Assembly (NCBI GenBank): GCA_016181265.1
Contig: JACOZP010000008.1
Span: 20,156 to 84,155, forward strand
DNA length: 64,000 nt
Direction: 5' to 3'
Origin: Candidatus Woesearchaeota archaeon
GTDB taxonomy: Archaea; Nanobdellota; Nanobdellia; Woesearchaeales; GW2011-AR9
Shown here: positions 8,092-63,360 of the stretch, piece by piece
Layout: each line of letters starts with the position of its first letter
Numbering within the stretch: position 1 is the first letter of the stretch
Notes under the pieces: generated by a model
What the model was told of the DNA's origin: nothing
Seen by the model: only the letters and a program-made list of their open reading frames with translations
Database searches by the model: none
Program-made: the position numbers and the translations under genes

Positions 8092-8541
8092 ATGAAATAT
8101 TTGCTAGGTGTGTTGGGATTAGCTTTAATCATAATTAGTACAACATTATTCTTGGGTGTGAAAGCCGTCCCCATAGACTCGACAGGCTCTGAAACAGATC
8201 GATCTCTGATTAAAGTAGTGACCGAAAACCAAGCAACAACTGCCGCGGTAGGGAAAGAGCAGGCGGTGACGCAACCAACTCTTTCCGGAATCACAACAAT
8301 GGATCTTCAGAAACATAATACAATGAGTGACTGCTGGGTGGGTTATCAACAGAAAGTCTATGACATCACGACGTGGCTGCCAAAACATCCCGGTTCTGCA
8401 AAAGCGATTCTTCCTTATTGCGGAACAGCTGCAGAATTTGAGCAGGCATTTACCAAGAAACATGGCAAATCAAAAGTATCTCTGTTCATGAGAGTAGCAG
8501 TATTTATGGGCGATTTTAGCCCGCAAGGTGATTTGCAATGA
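8092..8541 (+). CDS. membrane-anchored cytochrome b5-like heme-binding domain protein
   Basis: N-terminal TM/signal segment. C-terminal LQKHNTMSDCWVGYQQKVYDITTWLPKHPGS matches the cyt-b5-like pattern. Confidence 0.7.
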   Translation: MKYLLGVLGLALIIISTTLFLGVKAVPIDSTGSETDRSLIKVVTENQATTAAVGKEQAVTQPTLSGITTMDLQKHNTMSDCWVGYQQKVYDITTWLPKHPGSAKAILPYCGTAAEFEQAFTKKHGKSKVSLFMRVAVFMGDFSPQGDLQ

Positions 8542-8978
8542 TGACATCAAAGCAAGAGTATGGAGTGATGCTCTTACGCTATGCGATGGCAGGGGTATTT
8601 CTTCTCTTTGGGATCAATCAACTTTATGCACCAACAGAATGGACTGGTTTCGTCCCGGGATTGGTGAGCAAGTTGATGTCTGCCTCAACGGCAGTGATAG
8701 TGAATGGTTGTTTTGAGATTATCTTTGGATTATTTTTATTGTTCGGCTTGTATGTACGATTATCATCATTACTGTTAGGCTTGCATCTGATAGGTATTTC
8801 TTTTTCATTAGGTTACTCGCCATTAGCAATCAGAGATTGGGGGTTAGCGATGGCGACGCTTGCTCTTTTCTTGATGGGAACAGATAAATATTGTCTCGAT
8901 GTGAAGAGAACAGTGATGAAAGGCCGGCGGGGAAAGGCGGAGAATCGAGAAGAGACTAAGAATGAGGAGAAATCTTAA
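8538..8978 (+). CDS. DoxX-family membrane protein
   Basis: 4 TM helices. LRYAMAGVFLLFGINQL resembles the DoxX N-terminal motif. 4-nt overlap with the upstream cyt-b5-like gene. Confidence 0.6.
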   Translation: MMTSKQEYGVMLLRYAMAGVFLLFGINQLYAPTEWTGFVPGLVSKLMSASTAVIVNGCFEIIFGLFLLFGLYVRLSSLLLGLHLIGISFSLGYSPLAIRDWGLAMATLALFLMGTDKYCLDVKRTVMKGRRGKAENREETKNEEKS

Positions 8979-27176: not shown

Positions 27177-27218
27177 GCTGCCTCACCCTCATTTTCAACC
27201 TAATAATCGTTATATCCC

Positions 27219-27974
27219 GTGCTGGTTCATCTTGGGCCATTGGAGATACGATGGTACGGGATAGTGTATGTCTTAGGATTCTTCCTAGCAGTCTGGTGGA
27301 TGCAGCAGGCACGCAGGAAAGAAAAATTGCCTCTTTCTTCGGAAGAGATCTGGGATTTCATCTTTTATTTGATGATCGGAGTGTTGGTCGGAGCACGCCT
27401 ATTTATGCTTTTTTGGCAGCCCGAGATTTATTTTTCTCATCCGCTGAATCTCTTCAAGATTTGGGAAGGAGGGATGAGTTTTCACGGCGCACTGGTGGGT
27501 GTGATTGTAGCTGGCTGGTGGTTCTGCCGCAAGAAGAAGCTTGATTTTTGGACTGTGGCGGATATTGTCTGTGTCCCGGCGATGTTCGCATTGGCATTAG
27601 GAAGGATCGCTAATTTTATCAATGGGGAACTGGTCGGAAGGATCTGGAATGGGAGAGGGTGTGTCGTCTTCCCGGCATATGGAGATGAATGTAGGCATCC
27701 AAATATGATCTATGCGTTTTTCCAAAGGATGGCCGTTTTTGGTTGGTTAGTATGGCTAAGCTATCGGAATAAGTTCAAACCAGGCTTCATCTTCTGGAAT
27801 TTTGTCTTTCTAGAAGGTTTAGGAAGGATCATTGTTGATTTTTTTCGAGAGGACTCATTATATTGGGGATTTAGTCTTGGACAATGGTTTAGTTTAGTGA
27901 TGGTCCTTGTCGCAATATGGTTCTTTAGGAAAAGACACAGAGAGGATTTGAAGAAAATCTTTCAAAGAATATGA
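27219..27974 (+). CDS. lgt: prolipoprotein diacylglyceryl transferase (Lgt)
   Basis: LGPLEIRWYGIVYVLGF, FKIWEGGMSFHGALVGVIV, LGRIANFINGELVGR, HPNMIYA and GRIIVDFFRED align collinearly with the conserved blocks of bacterial Lgt. GTG start. Confidence 0.9.
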   Translation: MLVHLGPLEIRWYGIVYVLGFFLAVWWMQQARRKEKLPLSSEEIWDFIFYLMIGVLVGARLFMLFWQPEIYFSHPLNLFKIWEGGMSFHGALVGVIVAGWWFCRKKKLDFWTVADIVCVPAMFALALGRIANFINGELVGRIWNGRGCVVFPAYGDECRHPNMIYAFFQRMAVFGWLVWLSYRNKFKPGFIFWNFVFLEGLGRIIVDFFREDSLYWGFSLGQWFSLVMVLVAIWFFRKRHREDLKKIFQRI

Positions 27975-27988
27975 ATGGAGGGATATAC

Positions 27989-28405
27989 ATGAAATATACA
28001 GGAATAGTTGTGTTGTTAGTGGGATTATTGGCAGTTGTCGGCTGTAGTTCACCCGTCGTGGAAGATCAAGCGATGCCCGTACCGACGGAAGATGGGACGC
28101 AACCGAGCGTAGAAGAAACGATAGTTGAAGAGGAAACGGTGACAGCACCGACGGCAGGAGAAGTTAACCAAGTTGTAATCGAGAATTTTAAGTATAGTCC
28201 TTTTACGATGGAAGTGAACGTTGGCGATACGGTAGAGTGGGTTAATAAAGATAGCGCAGCGCACACGGTGACGATGTCAACATTAAATGTTGATGAGAAT
28301 TTACCGCAAGGAGCGACATTTACCTACACGTTTACGGAGAAGGGGACATATGAATATCGCTGCCGCTTTCACGCTGGAATGAAAGGAAAAGTGATTGTGA
28401 GTTAG
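27989..28405 (+). CDS. type-1 copper cupredoxin (amicyanin/plastocyanin-like), predicted lipoprotein
   Basis: GGAGGG SD 7 nt before the ATG at 27989. Signal MKYTGIVVLLVGLLAVVGC with a lipobox-like VVGC. Copper ligands AAHTV...C.FHAGM. Confidence 0.85.
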   Translation: MKYTGIVVLLVGLLAVVGCSSPVVEDQAMPVPTEDGTQPSVEETIVEEETVTAPTAGEVNQVVIENFKYSPFTMEVNVGDTVEWVNKDSAAHTVTMSTLNVDENLPQGATFTYTFTEKGTYEYRCRFHAGMKGKVIVS

Positions 28406-28461
28406 AACTTTTGGAGTTTTATTTTTTTCTTTTTTTGTTTTCTTAGCGGGTATGTCTTTTC

Positions 28462-36637: not shown

Positions 36638-37726
36638 TTAGAAGAGATACTTCATAAATCTTACGAATCGCGGTTCTTTCAACAAAGCCATACTAACGAG
36701 GGGGATGGGATTATCACGGGTATATTTCTCAAAAACCTCTTGAACTTTTGACTGGTTTACATACGAGATGAGGCGATCCCAATCTGCATCGGAGAATCTG
36801 TCCATGATTTTATGCACCTGAAGATGTGTCCACATTCTCTTACGCAATGGCTTGAGCTCGCGGCAATAATTCTTCTTCTCCGTGATGCAACGAGCGAGAA
36901 TTTCCGCCTGCTGCAGGCCGGGGATAAGACCGCCAAGCGTTGTGGCTTTGACGTAGCCCGCAGCATCACCGACAAGATAACAGTTATCTTTGTGTAGCCG
37001 TTGTTGAGGATGATAGACGGGAATCGTGCCGGCCTGCATCTCTTTTGCAGTGAAGTGATGCGCTTTCATGAATCGGTCAAAGTAATATTTGCTATTCTTG
37101 AGCGTCGCGACACCGACTCGAGCAGTGGTCGCTGATTCTGGCGCGATCCAAGCAAATAATCCGGGACAAACATCATTGCCAAAATAAGTCTTGATGGTAT
37201 GCGGTTCGAAAGTGCCCTCTACAACGGCTTGAACTCCATAATAGTTTTCCCGTTTGGGATAGTAGAAGCCAAAGGCTTTTGCGGTAGGTGATAGCGGGCC
37301 ATCGGCAGCGATGACAATGTCGGGGTTAACACGGATTTCGGTGTTATTTTTAGTGTCTTTGATGATCAGTTCTTTTCCTTCTTTACGCTGAAAACTGTGG
37401 TTGACAAGTATCTTAGCGCCAGCTTTACGAGCTTTGTCAGCGAAGAAGTTATCAAATTTAATGCGGCAGACGATGTAATCTTTTTGCTTGATTACTATCT
37501 TCTTGTTCGACGGAGAGTAGACTTCAATGGAATCAATGGTATTGACGAGAAAAGAATCTAGGGAGAAGCCGAATTGGTCGAAGTCAGAGGTAAGAATACC
37601 TGTGCATTGGATGGGTGAACCAATCTGGGGATGATTCTCGTAAATTGTAACTAAATGACCTTCTTTTGCTAACAAGTAGCCGGCATAACAGCCAATGGGG
37701 CCTGCACCGATGATAGTGATGTTCAT
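36638..37726 (-). CDS. geranylgeranyl reductase-family FAD-dependent oxidoreductase
   Basis: MNITIIGAGPIGCYAGYLLAKEGHLVTIYE (FAD GxGxxG) and LVGDAAGYVKATTLGGL motifs, typical of archaeal digeranylgeranylglycerophospholipid reductases. Confidence 0.82.
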   Translation of the reverse strand: MNITIIGAGPIGCYAGYLLAKEGHLVTIYENHPQIGSPIQCTGILTSDFDQFGFSLDSFLVNTIDSIEVYSPSNKKIVIKQKDYIVCRIKFDNFFADKARKAGAKILVNHSFQRKEGKELIIKDTKNNTEIRVNPDIVIAADGPLSPTAKAFGFYYPKRENYYGVQAVVEGTFEPHTIKTYFGNDVCPGLFAWIAPESATTARVGVATLKNSKYYFDRFMKAHHFTAKEMQAGTIPVYHPQQRLHKDNCYLVGDAAGYVKATTLGGLIPGLQQAEILARCITEKKNYCRELKPLRKRMWTHLQVHKIMDRFSDADWDRLISYVNQSKVQEVFEKYTRDNPIPLVSMALLKEPRFVRFMKYLF

Positions 37727-37835: not shown

Positions 37836-39152
37836 CTAATAGTACGTTTGTTCTTCTTCGTCGTCTTTTCTCAATCTGCTAAAGCCGATGATCAAGCCGA
37901 TGATGACTAGTAAGACTACTAGTACAATCAGAGCAATTTCAAGGCCGTTGCGAAGATTGAAATCGGTTGCTTTAGCAGCAGGAGCAGCACCAGCTACATT
38001 TGCTTGCAGAGCAATCGTTTGGACGGTTTCACTGCCTGCTTTAACAGCGACAGATACAGCATGTTGACCAACTGTAGCGTCAGCAGCAGGAGTTACATCC
38101 ACATAGACAACTTTGTTCTGGCCAGGAGCTAGAACAACAAGCATTTCACTTACGGAAGCTGTTGCCCATTCTCCACCAGTAGCAACGTCAAAGGTAAAAG
38201 CTTTGGTCGTTGTTCCTTCGTTGCTGAGTGCAATGCCGTAGGTTGCGGTTTTCCCAGGAGCAACAGTTTGTGATCCAGGGCCAACTGCGAGCAATACTTT
38301 ATCAGATTGCACCATTTCGCTTGCAACAACAGTGATGGACAATGTTTTGGTTGCTGTTTCATACTTGTCGTATTTAGCAGTAACTTTTACATCGTAGACA
38401 CCAGCAGCAGCTGAAGCTGGGATCGGCAAGAACATTTCAGGAACGTCTTTGCGTTCGTCAGCATCAAGTTTTTTAACAACTTCTGTAGCTTTTACGCCCA
38501 GAGCTGGAACTTCAACAGTAACAACAACGTTTTCTTCATCGCGGTCGCCATAATTTTCCAAGACTGGAGTAACTAATAGAGCACGGCCTGCTTTTACGGT
38601 TTCCCCAGGGGAGAAGTAGACATCGTTGATGTCAACAGCATGGCGTGCAGATTCTACGCTGAATACGTAGTTAAGTACAATTTCTTCAGAGTTTCGATCA
38701 AGGACGAAAACACGCAAGGTATTTTCTTCGTTGCTGATGTCTTTAGGAACAGTCAATTCAAGATCAACTGTTTTCTTTGTACCAGCGTTAAGATCGAAGA
38801 CGTGAGATACATCTTCTAAAGACACATAATCAGAGTATTCGTACCCGCTTAGGCGAGCAAGAACTTCAATCTGTTCTGCATCTTGTGCGTCAACAGTAGC
38901 GCCAGCAGCATCTTTAACTTGTGCAGGCATTTTCAATTCAACTTCAATATGTAACTTTTCGCCTTCTTCAACGGATTGAAGAATCAAGTTACCAAACTGA
39001 TCTTTTTCAGCTTCTTCATCATTTACCGTTACGGTGATATCATTTTCAGTCAGGCTACCAAGTGTGCTTTCGCTTACTTTTGCAGCACTAACCATAGAAA
39101 CCAACAGTACGCTGATGACGAAAAAAGCCATTACGTTTAGTAGTTTTCTCAT
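37836..39152 (-). CDS. S-layer-like type I membrane surface protein (beta-sandwich repeats)
   Basis: Signal peptide MRKLLNVMAFFVISVLLVSMVSA. Val/Thr-rich repeated beta-strand modules. C-terminal TM IALIVLVVLLVIIGLIIGF plus a short charged tail. GGAGG SD and strong TATA upstream. Confidence 0.7.
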   Translation of the reverse strand: MRKLLNVMAFFVISVLLVSMVSAAKVSESTLGSLTENDITVTVNDEEAEKDQFGNLILQSVEEGEKLHIEVELKMPAQVKDAAGATVDAQDAEQIEVLARLSGYEYSDYVSLEDVSHVFDLNAGTKKTVDLELTVPKDISNEENTLRVFVLDRNSEEIVLNYVFSVESARHAVDINDVYFSPGETVKAGRALLVTPVLENYGDRDEENVVVTVEVPALGVKATEVVKKLDADERKDVPEMFLPIPASAAAGVYDVKVTAKYDKYETATKTLSITVVASEMVQSDKVLLAVGPGSQTVAPGKTATYGIALSNEGTTTKAFTFDVATGGEWATASVSEMLVVLAPGQNKVVYVDVTPAADATVGQHAVSVAVKAGSETVQTIALQANVAGAAPAAKATDFNLRNGLEIALIVLVVLLVIIGLIIGFSRLRKDDEEEQTYY

Positions 39153-39227
39153 TTTTTATCTTCCTCCAAATTTCCTCTTCTTGCCTCATTAAAGGCATGA
39201 GTAGGATAGAGAGACAAGCTCTCGTAT

Positions 39228-39258
39228 TGACCTTTCAAAAGGTCAGTTATATATAAAT
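39228..39258 (-). promoter_or_regulatory. TATA box (TTTATATATAA) followed by the perfect palindrome TGACCTTT-nn-AAAGGTCA upstream of the S-layer-like gene
   Basis: On the minus strand the order is TATA (39247-39258), then the palindrome (39228-39245), then an ~70-nt leader, GGAGG and the ATG at 39152. Confidence 0.5.
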
Positions 39259-39300
39259 GTTTCGTCATTTTTAGTATCTCAAAGTAACTACACTCAGTTC

Positions 39301-41871
39301 TTATTTAAGGATAGTTAACTGACGATAGGCGACGCTATGCAGGGAATCGTTTTTGACGAGAATCTGCACAAGATAGGTTCCGGGAATGGTCTCGGGAGGG
39401 AGGGATAATCCTACGCTAGCCAAAGTCGAACCGTTCTTGGCAACATCAAATTGTCTGGTCGACTGGATAATGCCTAACTCAGGGATCATCACGATGCCAC
39501 GAACATCTTCTGCTTTAAGCAAGGTTTCATTTTCTACCTTGATGAAGACTTGTGTTTGCCAGTTGCCGTTGACTAATTCTTCGGGAGCCAGAGTTACGGA
39601 TTTAATGAAAAAGTCAGCTGAGGCTGGTTCTTCCACGGGCGGAATTATCGGAGGTTGAACTGGCGGAACGACGGGAGGGACGATGTTATTTGTTTCATCA
39701 TTGTCTTGCGGATTAGCGCAGCCAGGATCAGCCATATCGATCAATTTGTCTCCATCATTATCTTTGCCATCAGAACATTGGGTTGTTTGAGGTGGAGGGG
39801 GTGGAGAGGTATCTCCTTTGAGCATGACACTGATCAAGACATCTTCAGAAATAGTAACAAAACCATCGTTGACGGTGAACGTAACGGTATAGAGACCAAC
39901 TTGGTCTTTCGTCGGTTTCCAAGAAAAGCCGCTCTTTGCATATGTAGCTCCATCAGGCATAGGTAAAGCAGCGTAATTCAAGGTATCGTTATCTGCATCG
40001 ATTGCCTCAACAGTAAAAGAGACAGTATCGCCAACGTAGACAATCTGGTCATCTATCGGCTTAAATTGAGGCTTTTGATTTACGTCTTTGATATTGATCA
40101 GAACATTCTTTGTTGTTTTTGCTTTCCCATCATCAGCTTCCAAAATCAGCGTGAATGAACGGCTGGTCTGAGGGTGCTTAACGAATGAATAGAGCGGTTG
40201 GAGTTGAATGGTAAATGTTCCATCATTATTATTGATTATATGGACACCTTGTCCGTTGATCGGGGCAAGATCAGGGAGGATAGGATCGGCAGAGTAGGGT
40301 GTTAAGAGGATCTTATCTCCGTTCTTATCAAAGATGGTAACAGTAAACTGTAAAAGTTTGCCTTCCATTCCAAATTGGGTGTGAAGGCTGCCGATTACGG
40401 GTAGGCTATTTGGATCTACAGGCGGAACAGGAAGGTTTGTCTCGTCATCATCTTCAGGGTTGGTACAGCCAGGATCAGCCATATCGACCAATTTGTCCCC
40501 ATCGTTATCTTTGCCATCAGAACACTGAGACGTAGGCTCGACGGGCTTTTGTTTGACGATGATCTGAACATCTTGACTGGTTTGCGCGAAACCGTCAGAG
40601 ACGGAAAATGTGATGAGATGGCTGCCGAGATCATGGAATTTTGTCTGCCACGTGAAGGCAGTTCCGTCTAGTTTTGATCCGAGAGGTGCGTTTTCCATTG
40701 CATAGGAGAGGACGTCTTCGACATCAGCATCGGTTGCGTATAAGTCAAATGAAACGGTCTCACCAGCATAGACGACAATCTGATCAGAGAACGTGACGAA
40801 AGTCGGTTTGCGATTGACATCATTGACTAAGATAGTCACAACTTTCCAATCGGAGAACATTTTTCCATCGTATGCTTTAAAGCGCAGTTGGAGCGTCTTC
40901 TGAGTTTGAGGGTGCTTGATAAAGTCGTAGTCCGGACTAAAGGTAAATACTCCTGTCTGCGAATCGAAGTGAGCACCTTCTGGAACTAGATTAGGGAATG
41001 GATTATTATCAATAGGAACACCATTTGCGACAAGTGTATGAACGTAATACGTTAATTGATCCTGCTCAGCATCAGTTCCACTGACAACATAATTGATAGT
41101 ATCACTTTCATTGACATGAAGAGCAGGGATGTTATTCATCTGAGGAGCGGTGTTCTTCGGTTCGGGAGGAGGGACATCCGGTTTTTCTTCATCAAGAACA
41201 TAAATCTGGATCGTTTCGCTATCCTCTGCTTGGCCATCGGTAACGGTGAACGTGATAGCATACGTACCAGTCTTAGAAGGGGTCCAGATGAATTTCCCAG
41301 AGCCAGAATTAAGTTTCATATTCGGCTGGAAAGAAATTGCGCCGAAGTAGAGCTTGTCATTATCAGCATCAGTTGCGGAAAGTGTAAATTGCAGCGTCTC
41401 ACCGACAGGAATGTATCGATCGCCGATCGGATTCAAGACAGGGGAATGATTTTGTGGCGCGGGAGGGGGTACTGTTTCTTCTGTTGGGTTGACGTGTAAA
41501 ATAAGCGATTCTACGTCCGAGGAGTTGTAGCTAGTGATCTTCGCTTGAATGGTATAATCTCCGAGAAGAGAGGCAGTATTTAAGGAAAGAGCCTTCGTGT
41601 ACGAATCTTGTGTTAGATTATCGACTTTTAGAAGAGTGTTGATTTTCTGGGAGCCTTTGTACAAGTCGACGACAAGGTTAAAGCTAGGAGCTAGGCTGTC
41701 CGCAGTGATCATGATCTGAGGGATGCTTCCTTGTGTAACAGTTAGTGATTGGGTATTGGCACCAACCCAATATGCGTAAAGGGAGACATTGCCTGCACTT
41801 GCAAAAGGGACTGCTGCAATGAACAGCATCAACGTCAGTACAATTCCAAATAATTTTTGTGTCATATTCAT
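39301..41871 (-). CDS. large secreted adhesin-like protein with cadherin/dystroglycan-type Ig-like repeats and two Cys/Asp-rich inserts
   Basis: Signal peptide. At least 4 repeats of the pattern P..PIGD..V.VGETL.F.V.A.DAD.D.L.Y. Two copies of QCSDGKDNDGDKL(V/I)DMADPGC(T/A)NP.D.DETN. Confidence 0.75.
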   Translation of the reverse strand: MNMTQKLFGIVLTLMLFIAAVPFASAGNVSLYAYWVGANTQSLTVTQGSIPQIMITADSLAPSFNLVVDLYKGSQKINTLLKVDNLTQDSYTKALSLNTASLLGDYTIQAKITSYNSSDVESLILHVNPTEETVPPPAPQNHSPVLNPIGDRYIPVGETLQFTLSATDADNDKLYFGAISFQPNMKLNSGSGKFIWTPSKTGTYAITFTVTDGQAEDSETIQIYVLDEEKPDVPPPEPKNTAPQMNNIPALHVNESDTINYVVSGTDAEQDQLTYYVHTLVANGVPIDNNPFPNLVPEGAHFDSQTGVFTFSPDYDFIKHPQTQKTLQLRFKAYDGKMFSDWKVVTILVNDVNRKPTFVTFSDQIVVYAGETVSFDLYATDADVEDVLSYAMENAPLGSKLDGTAFTWQTKFHDLGSHLITFSVSDGFAQTSQDVQIIVKQKPVEPTSQCSDGKDNDGDKLVDMADPGCTNPEDDDETNLPVPPVDPNSLPVIGSLHTQFGMEGKLLQFTVTIFDKNGDKILLTPYSADPILPDLAPINGQGVHIINNNDGTFTIQLQPLYSFVKHPQTSRSFTLILEADDGKAKTTKNVLINIKDVNQKPQFKPIDDQIVYVGDTVSFTVEAIDADNDTLNYAALPMPDGATYAKSGFSWKPTKDQVGLYTVTFTVNDGFVTISEDVLISVMLKGDTSPPPPPQTTQCSDGKDNDGDKLIDMADPGCANPQDNDETNNIVPPVVPPVQPPIIPPVEEPASADFFIKSVTLAPEELVNGNWQTQVFIKVENETLLKAEDVRGIVMIPELGIIQSTRQFDVAKNGSTLASVGLSLPPETIPGTYLVQILVKNDSLHSVAYRQLTILK
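39716..39780. repeat. intragenic DNA repeat copy A (Cys/Asp-rich insert)
   Basis: GCAGCCAGGATCAGCCATATCGA(T/C)CAATTTGTC(T/C)CCATC(A/G)TTATCTTTGCCATCAGAACA(T/C)TG is shared with 40463-40527. Only a few mismatches. Confidence 0.8.
40463..40527. repeat. intragenic DNA repeat copy B (Cys/Asp-rich insert)
   Basis: See copy A; same orientation, 747 bp apart, both in frame within the 856-aa ORF. Confidence 0.8.
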
Positions 41872-41880
41872 AGTGGCCCC

Positions 41881-43062
41881 CTAATACTCAACACCTGCTT
41901 TTACTGTACCACCAAAAGAGTGAGGATGATCTTGTGAGGGAATGAAAAAATACAACGCATTGATGCTGCCCGTGAAAGCTGTGGCATCACTGAGGGGGAT
42001 GCGAATACCAAAACCGGCATTTGCGGAGACACCAAACTGGGTAGTGATATCTTCTCCTTTCGGTTCAGAGATCGTCTTCGGTCCCAGGAAAGTAGTTCCA
42101 TCAGGAAGAGAAAGACGTGTTGTTCGTTCTTTGTCACCGGATTCGGCACCCCAAAGTGCGTAAAGGCCTGCGACGAGGTCACTGTATACTTGAACATTTC
42201 CGATTTCTGTGAGAGGAATACGAACACCAAGGACCCCGCCGATTCCACCAGTAAGGCCGTCTGCCGTTGTGGAGGTTGTATCTCTCCATGATTTTGTGTT
42301 TCCGTCAGCTAATAATTCCGTACCTAGAGACGTGGATTGACCAGTGACTGCATCTCCATAGAGAAGAATGCCTTCGACTCCGAGGAATAGGTAATCACCA
42401 AGATGTCGTTGGTAGCGTACGCTTGCATTGAATATGGGATCGGTGCCGTCAGGCATATATCGTGCTAATCCACCAAGTGAAAAAGACAGTTCATTGTGGG
42501 GTTTCTGAGAAGGATAACTTCCAGAACCGGAACTACCTGGGCCGCCACTACCTGTTTTGTTTAGACGTTCTAATTCTTGGATACGACGTTGTGCTTCTTC
42601 TAACGCGCGTTGAGTTTCAGGATTGATAACTTTAACTTCCACTTTCTTTTCTACGAAACGATCGACAGGGCGATCAACATATTCTGTGACTCTTTCGACA
42701 TCGAGTTCATAACAGTGATAACTTTTTCCCCATGGACAAAGATTGTCTGGCCCTCTCTCGATAATCACGCCTTCTAGACTTTCAAGACGGCGTGCGTCGT
42801 CTTTGTTAAGGCAAATGCCTATTCCTGGGCCATCTTTGTAATGATCGGTACATTTACTACGAGGAATGCGTGGTCGTGTCACTTTACTCGGACACTCTGG
42901 GGCAGGCGGGCAATAATTGTCTCTACATACTCTTTCTAACTCATCCGGGGGGAGACAAATCTGTCCCTGTGCATTTGGTTGCGGCGGATTAGCACGTGCA
43001 GAAGGAGTTAAAGTTAAGGTCAGTGCGGCAAGGCCATAAGTTAGATATCGTGTAAGGTTCAT
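41881..43062 (-). CDS. secreted protein: Cys-rich N-domain, coiled coil, Gly/Ser linker and OMP-like beta-barrel-type C-terminal region
   Basis: Signal MNLTRYLTYGLAALTLTLTPSARA. The C-terminal ~200 aa show alternating hydrophobic beta-strand periodicity and end in VKAGVEY (aromatic terminus). ATG at 43062 chosen, 2 nt after the upstream stop. Confidence 0.65.
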   Translation of the reverse strand: MNLTRYLTYGLAALTLTLTPSARANPPQPNAQGQICLPPDELERVCRDNYCPPAPECPSKVTRPRIPRSKCTDHYKDGPGIGICLNKDDARRLESLEGVIIERGPDNLCPWGKSYHCYELDVERVTEYVDRPVDRFVEKKVEVKVINPETQRALEEAQRRIQELERLNKTGSGGPGSSGSGSYPSQKPHNELSFSLGGLARYMPDGTDPIFNASVRYQRHLGDYLFLGVEGILLYGDAVTGQSTSLGTELLADGNTKSWRDTTSTTADGLTGGIGGVLGVRIPLTEIGNVQVYSDLVAGLYALWGAESGDKERTTRLSLPDGTTFLGPKTISEPKGEDITTQFGVSANAGFGIRIPLSDATAFTGSINALYFFIPSQDHPHSFGGTVKAGVEY

Positions 43063-43064
43063 GT

Positions 43065-43727
43065 TTATTCCTCGTTGCAAGTCATTATTACAGTGGTTTC
43101 CATTCCTGGTTGAGATGGCTTTAGATCATATGCTGCTCGTACATATACCTCGAAAGCTTCTCTTAGAGGATAATATTCTTCATCGCCGCCCATTAACTGG
43201 AATAAAACATCTATCGGCTCAAGAGGATAAGAAGCATATCTCACGACAATAGTGTGTGGATCTGCTTTGATTCCCAATGCTTCGCTTTCAAATGTATTTC
43301 TACCATAAAGAATTAACCCAGGAGACAAAGAACAGACGTAATCATTAATTATCTCATCAATTCTTCTTTTTCGATCTTCAACACTCCCATACCCCAAAGC
43401 TTCAACCATTCTTGCTTCCATTGATTGAGGTTGTTCATCAGATTCAGGAGGCAATTGCGTTCTTTCTAAATCACGATTAAGACGTTCTAAACGAGTATTT
43501 AATTTCTCCAAAGACCGAGATAATTTTTCTAATTCTTCAATGGAGGTATCTTTAGCAGGATTAGGTTTGTAGAGAGAAGGAGTATCTTTTGGTTCGGGAG
43601 TATACGTTACGGGCTTTGGATCGATAGGTGATAGAGGTTCAGGTTTCGTAGTGGGTACTAGTTCAAGAGCCCCTAAGCCAAGAACCACTGCTGCTGCAAC
43701 TCCGCCAATGACAAATCTTGTGTTCAT
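43065..43727 (-). CDS. membrane-anchored coiled-coil protein, hypothetical
   Basis: N-terminal TM VIGGVAAAVVLGLGAL, Pro-rich spacer, LEKLSRSLEKLNTRLERLNRDLERT coiled coil. First gene of the surface operon. Confidence 0.6.
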   Translation of the reverse strand: MNTRFVIGGVAAAVVLGLGALELVPTTKPEPLSPIDPKPVTYTPEPKDTPSLYKPNPAKDTSIEELEKLSRSLEKLNTRLERLNRDLERTQLPPESDEQPQSMEARMVEALGYGSVEDRKRRIDEIINDYVCSLSPGLILYGRNTFESEALGIKADPHTIVVRYASYPLEPIDVLFQLMGGDEEYYPLREAFEVYVRAAYDLKPSQPGMETTVIMTCNEE

Positions 43728-58568: not shown

Positions 58569-59045
58569 CTAATCCTCTTCAAATGAGTCCACATAAAAGC
58601 CATATTTTGAAAGATAGTTGTTCTTAGGATTAGTTTCTTTGAGCATCCCTTTTAGTTTGTACTTCTGATTGTGCACCAGCCCGTGACATGGTTTCCCGTA
58701 ATCACAATAGCCATAGGCTTCTCCATCCGAAGAGTAAAGCTGAATCGTCGTTTTCCATTCTTCTTCATAGCTTAATTCTTGAGATTCGGGGAGCTCGTTC
58801 TGGGAAAATATCACTTTTCCCCAGCATTCCATTGTAGAAGCCCGACAGACGGCTCGAACATTTAAAGCATAACCTTCTAATTCTATTTTTTGATTCACGT
58901 ACACTTCCGGATTGGCAGTGATGGCTGACATTTTTACTGTCATTCCACTGTTCTTCGACTGTGGGTCTACGTTTTTCTCTGTGCATCCGACTAAGAGAAA
59001 GGCTAAAGTAATGAACAACCCCACCGTCATTATTGCACGTTTCAT
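58569..59045 (-). CDS. predicted lipoprotein, hypothetical
   Basis: MKRAIMTVGLFITLAFLLVGCTEKN: signal peptide ending in the lipobox-like LVGC. Cys-rich mature part. Confidence 0.6.
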   Translation of the reverse strand: MKRAIMTVGLFITLAFLLVGCTEKNVDPQSKNSGMTVKMSAITANPEVYVNQKIELEGYALNVRAVCRASTMECWGKVIFSQNELPESQELSYEEEWKTTIQLYSSDGEAYGYCDYGKPCHGLVHNQKYKLKGMLKETNPKNNYLSKYGFYVDSFEED

Positions 59046-59047
59046 TT

Positions 59048-59944
59048 TTACATCGCCTCTAATTTTTTGATCCTTTCGTTAATATCTGGATGCGTGCTAA
59101 ATAGATTTGTAAAAGTCCCTTTTGTCTTCCTAAACGGCGTCGAAATAAAGAGATGCGCCGTTGCCCGATTGGCTTTATCAACTAACGGATCAGGATCTTC
59201 TTTTATCTTGCGCAGCGCATCAGCCAGTCCCTTTGGATAGCGTGTCAGCATCGCGCCGGAGGCATCTGCCAAAAACTCACGCTTGCGGGAAACAGCTAAC
59301 TTCATCAGTTCGCCGATCAGCGGCGATAATATTGCCAGAGCTAGTCCTACGACAATCAAGATCGCTGTTCCAGAGCCTTTCTCGCGATCATTTCCATGGG
59401 ATCCCCACAAGAAACTACGTAACAAGAAGTCGGATAATAGTACCGTCAAACCAACCATCACGGAAGCAAGCAGCATCACGCGGATGTCAAAGTTTTTGAT
59501 GTGTGAAATCTCGTGAGCGAGAACTCCTTCCAATTCCAATTTATTTAATCGTTCCAGCAATCCGGTGGTTACTGCTACAGATGCATGCTGGGGATCACGA
59601 CCAGTAGCAAACGCATTCAAAGCGCTGTCTTCAATTACATACACCGCGGGAACTTTAGGTAATCCCGCAGCAATGGATAGTCCCTCGACGGTGTTGATGA
59701 GATGAGTATATTTCGGCTTGGTCGCTTCGTGGGCGCCGGTCATGGTTAAGACGGCATTCGCACCAGCGTAATAGCTGAAGAGGAAATAGATGATGCCAAT
59801 AAAGATAGCGAATCCAACGCCAAAATAGGTGCTGCCATACATCGCTCCGATAACGACACCAAGGACAGTAACTAGAACAAAGAAGAAAAAAAGCAAAAGG
59901 TACGTGCGCCTCTGGTTAGAGGCTATTTCATCGTAGATCCCCAT
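59048..59944 (-). CDS. htpX: HtpX-family zinc metalloprotease (M48)
   Basis: HEISHIKNFD (HExxH) and 4 TM. C-terminal FSTHPDINERI. Confidence 0.9.
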   Translation of the reverse strand: MGIYDEIASNQRRTYLLLFFFFVLVTVLGVVIGAMYGSTYFGVGFAIFIGIIYFLFSYYAGANAVLTMTGAHEATKPKYTHLINTVEGLSIAAGLPKVPAVYVIEDSALNAFATGRDPQHASVAVTTGLLERLNKLELEGVLAHEISHIKNFDIRVMLLASVMVGLTVLLSDFLLRSFLWGSHGNDREKGSGTAILIVVGLALAILSPLIGELMKLAVSRKREFLADASGAMLTRYPKGLADALRKIKEDPDPLVDKANRATAHLFISTPFRKTKGTFTNLFSTHPDINERIKKLEAM

Positions 59945-59949
59945 GGAGA

Positions 59950-60504
59950 TTAGAACTCTACTTTGACATTTCCTCGTTCTTTCCCGTCTGCTTTGAAGAA
60001 TTCTTCTGCTTTAAAGCTAAAAAGTTTAGCAAACAAGTTCTTAGGAAAAACTTGCAACGACTCATTGTAGCTCATCACAGAATCATTATAGAACTGGCGG
60101 GCGTATGCAATCTTGCTTTCAGTACCCGATAATTCTTCCTGCAGCTGCTTAAAGTTTTCGTTCGCTTTCAGTTGAGGGTAATTTTCTGCGACAGCAAAAA
60201 TAGACTTTAATGCGTCGGTGATCTGATTTGATGCTTTCGCTTTATCTTTCATCGATCCGGAGATTAAAGAAGTACGCGCTTTGGTCACTTCCTCAAGTAC
60301 CCCTTTTTCGTGTTTCATATAGCCTTTAACGGCGCTGATTAGATTAGGGATCAAATCATATCTTCTTTTTAACTGTACATCAATCTGAGACCAAGCATTT
60401 TTTACGCGCATGCGTAAGCGGATCAGACTGTTGTAGATGTAAATAACAAGTAATACAACCGCAACAATGACTACTAATATCCATGTGGCTACCATAATTT
60501 TCAC
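59950..60504 (-). CDS. lemA: LemA-family protein
   Basis: N-terminal TM, then NAWSQIDVQLKRRYDLIPNL and YNDSVMSYN, typical of LemA. Confidence 0.88.
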   Translation of the reverse strand: MKIMVATWILVVIVAVVLLVIYIYNSLIRLRMRVKNAWSQIDVQLKRRYDLIPNLISAVKGYMKHEKGVLEEVTKARTSLISGSMKDKAKASNQITDALKSIFAVAENYPQLKANENFKQLQEELSGTESKIAYARQFYNDSVMSYNESLQVFPKNLFAKLFSFKAEEFFKADGKERGNVKVEF

Positions 60505-60625: not shown

Positions 60626-61501
60626 TTGGTATTAGAACATCTTTTTCCTGAAGACTGGTTAGAAAAGCGGGGAGTGTACGCGTTTATTTTAGGAGCAGTT
60701 TATTCAGTAGTGGGAGTTCTTGTCGCATCTGTGCTTTTTCCAAAAGATCCGGCACTGGTGGGAGTGGCGTTGACGTCTATGTTAATTCTCCCGGAGATGT
60801 ACAAGATATTTTCATACCAAGAAAGACAACAAAGCTTAGAACAGAAGACAACATTTCTTTCTCTTTGGAAAAATGACATTGAAATTGTACGAATCTATGT
60901 ATTTATGTTTTTGGGAATTATCTTGATTTACTCTGTAGGGACAATGATTCTTCCCAGTATCCAGACAAACGAATTATTTAGGGAACAGTTAGAAATCCGT
61001 TTTGGGGAAGGCTTTGCAGGTAATGCAGTTGCTAGCGGCCTTTTTGAGAGTGGTTTATTCATAGAATTGCTGAGTAATAATTTACTGGTCATGATTGCCT
61101 GTTTTATAATGGCATTGCTGACAGGGGATGGAGCAGTCTTTTTGATTATCTGGAATGGATCAGTGTGGGGAACAATCTTTGGGATCACGGCGAAGAATGC
61201 AGCATCATTTTCAGGAGCGAATGTGATTTACATCTTTGGGATTGTCATGCTCATCGTTTTCCCACATATGATCATTGAAGGGATCTGCTATTTTTTGGCA
61301 GCGATCGCTGGTTCGCTGATATCAAAAGATGTTATTCTAGAGAAGTTTGCTTCCGATCGGTTCTTTAGGGTCTTTGGGTTTAATCTTTATCTTGTTGTGT
61401 TTGCGTTGCTGTTCTTGATATTAGGAGCGGCGGTAGAAGCGTTTGTCTTAGATAATGTGGATATCTATACGGAAATAGTTAGACAGAGTTTATTGGCGTA
61501 G
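60626..61501 (+). CDS. SpoIIM/DUF95-family integral membrane protein
   Basis: About 6 TM. VFPHMIIEGICYFLAAIAG resembles the DUF95 PHGxxE motif. TTG start with a TATAAA box about 40 nt upstream. Confidence 0.6.
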   Translation: MVLEHLFPEDWLEKRGVYAFILGAVYSVVGVLVASVLFPKDPALVGVALTSMLILPEMYKIFSYQERQQSLEQKTTFLSLWKNDIEIVRIYVFMFLGIILIYSVGTMILPSIQTNELFREQLEIRFGEGFAGNAVASGLFESGLFIELLSNNLLVMIACFIMALLTGDGAVFLIIWNGSVWGTIFGITAKNAASFSGANVIYIFGIVMLIVFPHMIIEGICYFLAAIAGSLISKDVILEKFASDRFFRVFGFNLYLVVFALLFLILGAAVEAFVLDNVDIYTEIVRQSLLA

Positions 61502-61898: not shown

Positions 61899-62717
61899 TT
61901 ATTTCTCATGTGGTTTGCAAACATCATAGAAATCACATTTACCCGTAGACCATTTGCAGAGGGACGTGATGGTTTTAGGGTAATCTTCTTTCTGTTCGGT
62001 GGAACTTGTATGCTTATGGATCTCTTCGATTTCTTTCCTTGCAAGATCGAGGAGAGGCTCGTCAACATTCATCAGCTTCAGCTTATGACGAAGGAAAAAG
62101 ATACCCACTTTGGAAGGCATTTTCCCATGCTTTTCGAAATAAAGAAGAGAGTATATCGCTAATTGAAGCCGGATGCTCTCTTTCATCTCAAACGTAGAGT
62201 TAGTCTTGTAATCAATGATGTGGACTTCGTCATCAACGTGGTGAATAGCATCAATGAATCCACGGACGGAACGTCCTTCGGACGCATATTCTTGTTCACG
62301 GACAGGAGTCAGTTCTAAGAACGCTTCCTGCACGGAAATATTCTTTTTTTTCAGGAGGATGGACAGATCTTCGACAAAGTGATTTGTCCAATTCATGAGC
62401 ATAAGCATTGTCTCTTCGAAGTAAAAGCGTTCCTGGTCAGGGCTCAGTTGGAGCAGTCGGAGTTTTTCTTGGTATTGTTTCCAATAATGAAGAAAAAAAG
62501 TTTGGATGCTCTCCTTGCATTTACGCGCAAAATTCTCTTCGGTAAGTTGATGAGTGTCAAGATTATAGAAGTTTTCTAGCGTAGAGTGAGCAATATTACC
62601 CCGAACCTGATGAATATTGGCTTGAGTTGGTAGTTTCTCGATGTATTGATAATAATATTTCCGCTTGCACTGCTTGAATGTGTTGATTGATGAGGGGGAT
62701 TCTATTCTTTTTGCCAT
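61899..62717 (-). CDS. Cas4/RecB-like PD-(D/E)XK nuclease with 4-Cys cluster
   Basis: N-terminal FKQCKRKYYY and C-terminal CKWSTGKCDFYDVC (C...CxxxxxCxxxxxC arrangement). IDAIH...IIDYK core. No CRISPR or other cas genes in the window. Confidence 0.7.
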   Translation of the reverse strand: MAKRIESPSSINTFKQCKRKYYYQYIEKLPTQANIHQVRGNIAHSTLENFYNLDTHQLTEENFARKCKESIQTFFLHYWKQYQEKLRLLQLSPDQERFYFEETMLMLMNWTNHFVEDLSILLKKKNISVQEAFLELTPVREQEYASEGRSVRGFIDAIHHVDDEVHIIDYKTNSTFEMKESIRLQLAIYSLLYFEKHGKMPSKVGIFFLRHKLKLMNVDEPLLDLARKEIEEIHKHTSSTEQKEDYPKTITSLCKWSTGKCDFYDVCKPHEK

Positions 62718-62826: not shown

Positions 62827-63360
62827 ATGAAACCAAATCAACTGACGACGATACGATTTCTCTTACTCTTTTTTGTGATTCTGGCTGATCAGATCCAGCT
62901 TTATCTCCTTGCGCTGCTCTTAATTGGCCTGTCTTTCTTAACTGATTTTTTGGACGGTTTCGTCGCACGCAGATATAAGAAAGGTTCAGAAGTGGGGGTC
63001 TTCTATGATCATTTCGTAGATAAGGTTTTTGTCCACGTTCTATTGATCTATTATCTCTCACAGAATCTAATTTCATTCTGGATTGTAGCGTTATTAATCC
63101 TACGAGATTATGTTGCACTCGGATTTCGACAGTATGCAATTTCCAAAGGAGAGAATGTAGCAAGCGTGTTGTCAGGAAAGATTAAATTGATTTCACAAGG
63201 GGCGTTATTAGTGTTAATTGCATTGGTAAGGCTAACCGCATTTCCGTCCGTGGTTCTGCTGGGATTGGAGTGGCTTATCGTGCTGTGGTCATTTGTATCG
63301 TTAATCGATATGGGATGGAAGAATAAAAAAATCATACAAAAGTTGTGGAAAGAGCTTTGA
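62827..63360 (+). CDS. CDP-alcohol phosphatidyltransferase family protein
   Basis: TDFLDGFVARRYKKGSEVGVFYDHFVDKV fits D-x2-DG-x2-AR-x8-G-x3-D-x3-D. Confidence 0.88.
   Translation: MKPNQLTTIRFLLLFFVILADQIQLYLLALLLIGLSFLTDFLDGFVARRYKKGSEVGVFYDHFVDKVFVHVLLIYYLSQNLISFWIVALLILRDYVALGFRQYAISKGENVASVLSGKIKLISQGALLVLIALVRLTAFPSVVLLGLEWLIVLWSFVSLIDMGWKNKKIIQKLWKEL

Follow-up and report, generated by a model that had tools for sequence, protein, structure and literature searches.

The window analysed here, a stretch of 64,000 nucleotides from contig JACOZP010000008.1 of a Candidatus Woesearchaeota archaeon, carries at 27219..27974 on the forward strand an open reading frame (ORF) for a polytopic membrane protein of 251 amino acids as assembled, which belongs to the prolipoprotein diacylglyceryl transferase (Lgt) family. 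Its stop codon overlaps a possible start codon of the next gene on the same strand (27971..28405), which encodes a type-1 copper cupredoxin bearing a lipobox. A PRC-barrel gene lies upstream in the divergent orientation, and the gene for ABCE1 converges on the cupredoxin gene from the other side. The initial annotation of this DNA, made from the letters alone, had started from the premise that archaea are regarded as being without canonical Lgt and LspA. This premise is accurate and current: no archaeal Lgt or Lsp homologs were identified according to Nat Commun 2025 (PMC12462473), and Lgt is 'absent from archaea' according to mBio 2026 (PMC13251419). The latter study missed archaeal Lgt because only RefSeq genomes were searched.

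The family of the protein is clear from profile, pairwise and structural comparisons, all of which bear out the identity first proposed for the ORF. The Pfam profile LGT (PF01790) matches it with an E-value of 1.1e-66 and 225.1 bits (cutoff 24.9), and the match runs from end to end, from residue 2 to 236 of 251 and from profile position 3 to 238 of 240. The lgt equivalog model of NCBI, TIGR00544, gives 177.8 bits against a curated cutoff of 118.9, and phmmer aligns the protein with Escherichia coli Lgt (PDB 5AZB) at an E-value of 5e-34. An AlphaFold2 (AF2) model obtained with an alignment of 39 sequences as input has a pLDDT of 90.8 and a pTM of 0.88, and was used in place of a model from the single sequence, which was discarded (pLDDT 59.5). 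When the alignment-based model was compared with the PDB by Foldseek, 5AZB was the sole significant match (E-value 1.9e-12, TM 0.73, 31% identity). The blocks typical of bacterial Lgt that had been picked out by eye, IRWYG, WEGGMSFHG, GRIANFINGELVGR, RHPNMIY and FFRED, are all located where they had been placed. By every sequence and structure criterion except residue Y235, which is treated below, the protein truly belongs to the Lgt family of bacteria; it is thus a variant member.

Residues that are essential or structurally important in E. coli Lgt have been defined (PMC4728403; PMC13251419), and they were compared, in the E. coli numbering used from here on, between 52 core Lgt sequences of Woesearchaeota and 83 labelled bacterial Lgt. 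Y30, S101, H103, G104, D129, G142, R143, N146, N149, E151, G154 and R239 are invariant in all 52 Woesearchaeota sequences. R246 is kept in 51 of them, and so is Y26 in the first transmembrane helix (TM1; Y13 of the window protein), the remaining sequence having a gap there. In the window protein H103 corresponds to H89 within MSFHGAL, and R239 and R246 correspond to R203 and R210. These two arginines make up a hydrogen-bond network with E243, whose replacement by aspartate in Woesearchaeota is conservative. The signature motif reads G128-R-I-A-N-F-I-N-G-E-L-V-G140, as compared with G142-R-L-G-N-F-I-N-G-E-L-W-G154 in E. coli. It had been foreseen that catalytic residues might turn out to be missing on proper alignment; they are present. 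Thus, the window protein shares with E. coli Lgt (5AZB/5AZC) the family and fold, the signature motif (GRIANFINGELVG vs GRLGNFINGELWG), the HGG(A)L motif with its histidine, and Y26, R143, N146, E151, G154, R239 and R246.

Other positions set the archaeal proteins apart from the bacterial ones. Position 80, a tyrosine in all 83 bacterial sequences, is a tryptophan in 51 of the 52 from Woesearchaeota; position 235, likewise tyrosine in 83 of 83, is glutamate in 47 (E199 in the window), aspartate in 3, methionine in 1 and leucine in 1; position 243 changes from glutamate (83/83) to aspartate (52/52), and position 202 from glutamate or glutamine (82/83) to alanine or serine (48/52). Loop L6-7 has a median length of 15 residues in bacteria and of 10 in Woesearchaeota, which have no counterpart of W256 and Y259 of E. 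coli. Two cysteines in the extracytoplasmic head loop occur in all 52 Woesearchaeota sequences as against 2 of the 83 bacterial ones, and those of the window protein, C148 and C158 (27660-27692, in WC-VVFP...-CRHP), probably form an extracytoplasmic disulfide. Taken against E. coli Lgt alone, the window protein of this archaeal host differs in this clade-specific cysteine pair, in a head loop of 19 residues instead of 41 between TM4 and the RHP motif, in the substitutions Y80W, G138A, G145A, E202A, Y235E and E243D, and in a loop L6-7 that is about 5-6 residues shorter and without W256/Y259.

In E. coli Lgt the residues F102, R143, E202, Y235, R239, W256 and Y259 make up the pocket for the glycerol of the transferred lipid (PMC4728403), and four of these seven residues differ in Woesearchaeota Lgt. 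Y235 contacts the C3-OH of the diacylglyceryl moiety in the E. coli enzyme, which is inactivated by Y235F/L/S and by Y80F/Q (PMC4728403), and E243 was found to be dispensable in later mutagenesis (PMC13251419). In the deeper archaeal branches the aspartate at 243 is already present in four of five sequences (the fifth has asparagine) and Y235 is retained, which suggests that the clade-specific residues changed stepwise. The pattern as a whole suggests a lipid-backbone pocket that was remodelled around an intact catalytic and peptide-binding core, and this remodelling may reflect a different donor lipid.

The gene is under purifying selection. Against its nearest relatives the proportion of nonsynonymous differences (pN) is 0.15 and that of synonymous differences (pS) about 0.8, the latter being saturated; for the closest pair available (L001-L003) the ratio of nonsynonymous to synonymous rates (dN/dS) is 0.12. 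Strain variants of lgt in other metagenomes comprise 8 synonymous and 4 nonsynonymous single-nucleotide polymorphisms (SNPs), none of them at key residues.

The downstream gene is as closely joined to lgt as had been described. The tetranucleotide ATGA at 27971-27974 holds both the lgt stop codon (TGA, 27972-27974) and a first ATG (27971-27973) for the cupredoxin, and a second ATG follows 18 bases on, at 27989, preceded at a distance of 6 nt by a Shine-Dalgarno-like GGAGGG (27977..27982, forward strand). Read from ATG 27989, the protein begins with MKYTGIVVLLVGLLAVVGC followed by SS, that is, with a signal peptide of the Sec type that has a canonical lipobox, V16-V17-G18-C19, at its end; an acidic linker and an amicyanin-like domain come next. 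The domain scores 55.9 bits with PF13473 (cutoff 27) and 43.3 bits with PF00127 (cutoff 21.2) and has a complete type-1 copper site (H92, C125, H128 and M131, in CxxHxxM spacing); the amicyanin and plastocyanin equivalog models stay below their cutoffs, so that the assignment is to the superfamily only. The overlap, the start at 27989 with its ribosome binding sequence, the VVGC lipobox and the copper protein had all been claimed, and each was found as stated. Where the cupredoxin and ABCE1 genes converge, a T-rich tract at 28416..28443 is a likely oligo-T terminator region.

The pairing of the two genes is real in the window. Of the related loci only about 40% share it: 22 of 53 have a cupredoxin gene downstream of lgt in the same orientation. 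Among these 22 lgt-adjacent orthologs the lipobox cysteine is canonical in 20 despite very divergent signal peptides, while the CxxHxxM copper site is kept in about 14, and therefore the anchor is better conserved than the metal centre. The copper site is lost in eight orthologs (L004, L007, L019, L020, L029, L033, L037 and L041); six of them retain the signal peptide and the lipobox cysteine and would be copper-free lipoproteins with a cupredoxin fold, and two (L007 and L037) have lost it. Strain SNPs in the cupredoxin gene are 13 synonymous and 4 nonsynonymous, and all four replacements fall in the linker. The protein resembles halocyanin-type lipoproteins in being a small archaeal type-1 copper cupredoxin with a lipobox signal peptide and a linker, and it matches TIGR03102 (halocyanin domain) weakly; a lipid anchor has been predicted for halocyanin (cited in PMC13631571). 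It differs from halocyanins in that its best matches are to amicyanin/Cupredoxin_1, with the CxxHxxM arrangement, its signal peptide is of the Sec type and not the Tat type, its gene lies directly behind lgt, and 8 of the 22 orthologs are without the copper site.

A second lipobox protein of the window, encoded at 58569..59045 on the reverse strand and previously listed for its LVGC, was recovered by a regular-expression scan of the window. It starts with MKRAIMTVGLFITLAFLLVGC followed by TEKN, and is an orphan: it has no Pfam match, and no homolog was found in a word search of 5.8 billion proteins. Its gene forms a cluster with those of an htpX-type M48 protease (59048-59944) and lemA (59950-60504), downstream of which it lies, and a SpoIIM-family membrane protein is encoded divergently beside this cluster (60626-61501); the SpoIIM family (arCOG01994) has been reported next to AliA in the genomes of other archaea. 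When a simple signal-plus-lipobox pattern was run over about 1,180 genes of Woesearchaeota loci, 31 ORFs were found, 11 of them unrelated to the cupredoxin. Leaving out the cupredoxins, the rate is 1.0%, with the 11 ORFs set against about 1,150 genes, near and slightly below the 1.2-2.0% of bacterial control loci scanned alike, a comparison that amounts to a crude pattern test on loci and not to a proteome-wide enrichment.

The surroundings of lgt are archaeal, in agreement with the context claimed at the outset. Also encoded in the window are an ABCE1 that has its Fe-S domain, an archaeal-type glutamyl-tRNA synthetase (GluRS), a non-discriminating aspartyl-tRNA synthetase, an archaeal GdhA, a tRNA-splicing endonuclease, FEN1 and TrmB, and its GC content is flat at about 0.42, with 0.41 around lgt. 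The best 120 of 7,223 homologs are 61-77% identical to the window Lgt, and the named ones among these 120 are entered as 'prolipoprotein diacylglyceryl transferase [Candidatus Woesearchaeota / Nanoarchaeota archaeon]', while the nearest labelled bacterial Lgt is at most about 43% identical. Among species-representative genomes there are 55 loci of the Woesearchaeota type with lgt, 52 of them near-full-length and 3 fragments; the contigs that bear them are up to 704 kb long, and one belongs to a single-cell genome, AG-343-C14. The gene order GluRS-orf161-(PurA)-PRC barrel-Lgt-(small TM protein or rubrerythrin)-(cupredoxin)-ABCE1 is found in most of 53 Woesearchaeota/Nanoarchaeota species loci. 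Public databases already name these proteins of metagenome-assembled genomes (MAGs) Lgt automatically, and the locus is not unique to the window, its type being found throughout the order.

A few details of these loci may be recorded. The slot between lgt and the cupredoxin gene is occupied in L015, L018, L029, L032, L043, L045 and L011 by a gene for a conserved membrane protein of about 110 amino acids with 2-3 TM helices and the motifs ...AMxYAKQGLVLF... and IPxIGxFAKKI, and in L025, L034 and L035 by a rubrerythrin-like gene. Many species-representative records labelled 'uncultured Methanosarcinales archaeon' (L004, L009, L012-L014 and others) have Woesearchaeota synteny and Lgt, ABCE1 and FEN1 proteins that are 60-70% identical, and their labels look wrong. 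One Lgt (P0136) from a 5-kb contig labelled 'Nitrosarchaeum sp.' is nested in the Woesearchaeota clade and is probably mis-binned.

Where did the gene come from? An exhaustive search of representatives yielded 14,144 Lgt relatives, among which Woesearchaeota make up a handful of clusters at 50% identity, followed by a drop to about 40% identity. The phylogenetic placement proposed as a check was carried out: in a tree built from 102 labelled sequences, every one of the 57 Lgt with an archaeal label, the 'Nitrosarchaeum' one included, falls in one clade with an SH-aLRT support of 99, and their sister, also with a support of 99, is a sequence from Parcubacteria (MBI4117571.1), of the Candidate Phyla Radiation (CPR). 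Archaeal monophyly was not rejected by the approximately unbiased (AU) test (p 0.84), the constrained tree scoring better than the free search. The name Woesearchaeota is also borne by several representatives that branch deeper, among them one from a contig of 1.13 Mb (USN45277.1). The nearest labelled bacterial relatives are MBI4117571.1 and Lgt of Thermodesulfobacteriota/Deltaproteobacteria MAGs; the deltaproteobacterial sequences are 38-43% identical to the window Lgt. The short head loop is common to all these bacterial relatives, and L054 and L055, the closest two from Deltaproteobacteria, share the GRLANF variant of the signature motif as well; in contrast to the window protein, the bacterial relatives keep Y80, E202/Q, Y235, E243 and a longer L6-7 loop and have no cysteine pair. 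Most simply, the tree would be read as a single old acquisition from a bacterial source, after which the gene was inherited vertically. The donor lineage was possibly CPR-like, the sister relation being tentative in a sampling with a single labelled CPR sequence and an outgroup heavy in Proteobacteria. Of the horizontal acquisition that had been raised as a question, bacterial origin therefore stands, and a recent arrival in this genome does not: the single archaeal clade makes the event ancient and clade-wide.

The 5' end of lgt needs separate treatment, as the window begins the ORF with GTG at 27219 because bases are missing from its sequence. In independent Logan contigs of three metagenome runs, two from one groundwater study and one from an independent soil study, 114 extra bases stand exactly between 27213 and 27214. 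All contigs crossing 27213/27214 in the three runs contain them, including those of the best-matching run, from the groundwater study, which holds 0.94 of the window's words and in which the flanks are 100% identical. The insert was read at its outer 30 nt on each side: the contigs continue after 27213 with TGTGAACAGAGTACGAAAGTGAATATATAA and arrive at 27214 with CAAAACGAACTATGTACATCTATAATCTCG. The end of the insert joined to the window gives ATG TAC ATC TAT AAT CTC GAT CCC GTG..., and the protein would start with MYIYNLDPVLVHLGPLEIRWYG (MYIYNLDP), the relatives having MYVYNLNPVLVHLGPLEIRWYG at the same place. The 7-8 N-terminal residues that the window ORF lacks, with their conserved N-L-(N/D)-P segment, are found in every relative, and the intergenic gap between lgt and the divergent PRC-barrel gene is 42 bp in the window vs 133 bp in relatives. 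The true lgt thus has an ATG start, a product of about 259 amino acids and an upstream region of normal size, and the insert, besides this ATG and the first 7 codons, probably also holds a promoter region shared with the PRC-barrel gene. The form seen in the window is an assembly error or a deletion variant, and it is more likely to be an assembly artefact or a minority variant.

We think it quite probable that the gene encodes a functional Lgt of bacterial derivation, established as a stable and vertically inherited gene of Woesearchaeota (DPANN archaea), and, with the same good degree of confidence, that it acts by Lgt-type lipidation of lipobox proteins. An outline of the process would be as follows. 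The enzyme, with seven helices, would be embedded in the cytoplasmic membrane, its active site turned to the outside. Precursors whose signal peptide has a lipobox ([LVI][ASTVI][GAS]C) at its end would first be exported by Sec. The di-radyl-glyceryl moiety of a phospholipid with a glycerol head group would then be transferred to the +1 cysteine and bound to its thiol by a thioether link, by which the protein would be anchored at the cell surface. The downstream cupredoxin would be one substrate, with Cys19 as the acceptor, and the overlap of the lgt stop with its start would allow translational coupling; the orphan lipobox protein at 58569-59045 would probably be another. What was observed is the family, the fold, the conserved core, purifying selection, residence in archaea, the single clade and the conservation of the neighbour's lipobox cysteine, and it is from these that activity, substrates and donor lipid are inferred.

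Several observations weigh against this picture. Y235, which is essential in E. coli, only Y235T being partly active (PMC4728403), is a glutamate in 47 of the 52 Woesearchaeota sequences. G145 is an alanine in the window protein, and the G145A mutant of E. coli Lgt is inactive (PMC4728403); alanine at this position occurs in 20 of the 83 bacterial Lgt too. LspA (PF01252) was not found in the window, in 58 Lgt loci or in 35 FEN1-centred loci, together about 1 Mb of Woesearchaeota DNA, by searches with phmmer and a 3-sequence LspA hidden Markov model whose E. coli query was validated against PDB structures of LspA; the same searches gave no match in 147 bacterial loci either. Woesearchaeota have been reported to be without geranylgeranylglyceryl phosphate (GGGP) and digeranylgeranylglyceryl phosphate (DGGGP) synthases (PMC8421398), which bears on the composition of their membrane and on the donor. 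A search of RNA-seq data found no run with the locus. Finally, lgt as assembled is without its start codon and promoter region, and if the deletion were real this copy could be crippled.

The last point can be extended into an alternative, namely that lgt is inactive or decaying in this genome, the 114-bp deletion having left an N-terminally truncated ORF with a GTG start and only 42 bp of intergenic space. The 114 bases and the conserved N-L-(N/D)-P segment are indeed absent from the window, but every contig spanning the site in three runs has the bases, the remaining ORF is intact and strain variation is mostly synonymous, so that we regard decay as distinctly unlikely. Still less credit can be given to contamination, that is, to a bacterial lgt fragment misjoined or misbinned with archaeal DNA. 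Such an error would be natural to suspect, as Lgt is elsewhere a hallmark of bacteria, MAGs are easily mis-binned, and labels in this data set are unreliable, as with the 'Nitrosarchaeum sp.' contig of 5 kb and the many 'Methanosarcinales' records. The initial annotation had itself named a chimeric bacterial/archaeal assembly as what would overturn it. However, lgt is flanked by archaeal housekeeping genes, those of the PRC barrel and ABCE1, in a 64-kb window of uniform GC content; the same gene order recurs in dozens of genomes assembled independently in different studies, in a single-cell genome and on contigs of 0.3-0.7 Mb; independent Logan contigs cross the PRC-lgt junction at 100% identity; and the closest labelled bacterial sequences are as distant as stated above. 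The same junctions occur in dozens of independent assemblies, and therefore the locus is not chimeric. On synteny and composition the chimera explanation was rejected as effectively refuted, its probability being very small indeed.

A further alternative accepts the archaeal gene and questions its job. Lipidation of archaeal lipoproteins has an experimentally established machinery, AliA/AliB (arCOG02177/02178) of Haloferax volcanii (PMC12462473; PMC13631571), which has the same presumed role as Lgt, the attachment of a thioether-linked lipid to the lipobox cysteine, and of which AliA is not detectably homologous to Lgt. The Woesearchaeota homolog could have been repurposed: no longer lipidating lipobox cysteines, it would act on another acceptor or another lipid, lipid remodelling being one example, and the lipoproteins would come from a native enzyme of the AliA type. 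Y80W, Y235E and E243D, which replace residues invariant in the 83 bacterial Lgt, would fit such a change of function, as would the loss of E202, the shortening of loop L6-7 with W256/Y259 and the new cysteine pair; substitutions of Y235 and Y80 inactivate the E. coli enzyme, and AliA has been reported in DPANN 'with some gaps'. Set against this, the residues for peptide binding and catalysis (the HGGL region with H103, together with R143, R239, R246 and Y26) remain invariant, E243 was non-essential in the 2026 mutagenesis (PMC13251419), and the protein encoded downstream on the same strand is repeatedly one whose lipobox cysteine is better conserved than its own copper site. We therefore hold repurposing to be unlikely, though somewhat less so than decay of the gene, and prefer a lipoprotein-modifying Lgt.

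If the protein is a lipoprotein-modifying Lgt, which lipid would it use? Two further genes of the window touch this question. A PgsA-like CDP-alcohol phosphatidyltransferase is encoded at 62827..63360 on the forward strand (PF01066, E-value 2e-26). Its best NCBIfam match is to pgsA, TIGR00560, with 80 bits, below the cutoff of 109, as compared with 44 bits for archaetidylinositol-phosphate synthase. Among Woesearchaeota/Nanoarchaeota only about 20 clusters contain it, and after these come bacterial PgsA proteins with no more than 38% identity; a genome scan with it gave bacterial PgsA almost exclusively. The gene is possibly a second bacterially derived lipid gene, and the enzyme is a possible source of a lipid with a glycerol-phosphate head group, the type of donor that Lgt uses, and may in this way be linked to Lgt. 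A geranylgeranyl reductase family protein is encoded at 36638..37726 on the reverse strand (TIGR02032, 166.8 bits vs a cutoff of 158.8), which hints that the cell processes isoprenoid lipid chains of the archaeal type. Our best guess is that the donor would be whatever glycerol-headed lipid the membrane holds, an ether lipid of the archaetidylglycerol type being somewhat likelier than diacyl-phosphatidylglycerol (diacyl-PG).

A bolder form of this proposal is offered tentatively, since we put its chances at about one in three. According to it, Lgt would use an ether-linked sn-glycerol-1-phosphate donor, archaetidylglycerol, and make archaeol-thioether lipoproteins, thereby crossing the 'lipid divide'. 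On the same tentative footing, the cell might scavenge the archaetidylglycerol, or complete it with PgsA-like and geranylgeranyl reductase enzymes of its own. Y80W, Y235E, E243D, the loss of E202, the loss of the loop with W256/Y259 and the disulfide in the head loop could then be clade-wide adaptive changes by which the lipid pocket has its stereochemical and ester specificity inverted or relaxed. Finally, at the same modest level of credence, the captured bacterial enzyme might have replaced or supplemented the native AliA route in Woesearchaeota.

Other genes of the window are worth mentioning in passing. Several large proteins, secreted or at the surface and with signal peptides of the SPase-I type, are encoded in a row at 37836-43727 on the reverse strand; one of them (37836-39152) matches the model of the PACE-CTERM putative S-layer protein below threshold. 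A cytochrome-b5-like, heme-binding, membrane-anchored protein (8092-8541, forward strand) overlaps a DoxX-family membrane protein (8538-8978); this redox pair is unexpected in a presumed fermentative member of DPANN and, together with the anchored cupredoxin, may hint at extracytoplasmic electron transfer. At 61899-62717 on the reverse strand there is a Cas4-like PD-(D/E)xK nuclease (TIGR00372, below cutoff), and no CRISPR array or other cas genes were seen nearby.

In the collection of papers that was searched no publication links Woesearchaeota with Lgt, and the gene described here is a real, under-recognised exception to the rule that archaea lack Lgt. The field ascribes the lipidation of archaeal lipobox proteins to the unrelated AliA/AliB, and a canonical Lgt among the core genes of an archaeal order stands in contrast to this. 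It opens a long-standing question to direct testing: can an enzyme for ester-linked phosphatidylglycerol (PG) based on sn-glycerol-3-phosphate (G3P) function in the membrane of an archaeon, or are the lipids of these DPANN cells of the bacterial type? Y80W, Y235E, E243D and the short L6-7 loop offer concrete positions for mutation. The finding is of further relevance to the exchange of genes between DPANN and CPR, and to the view of Lgt as a strictly bacterial drug target or marker.

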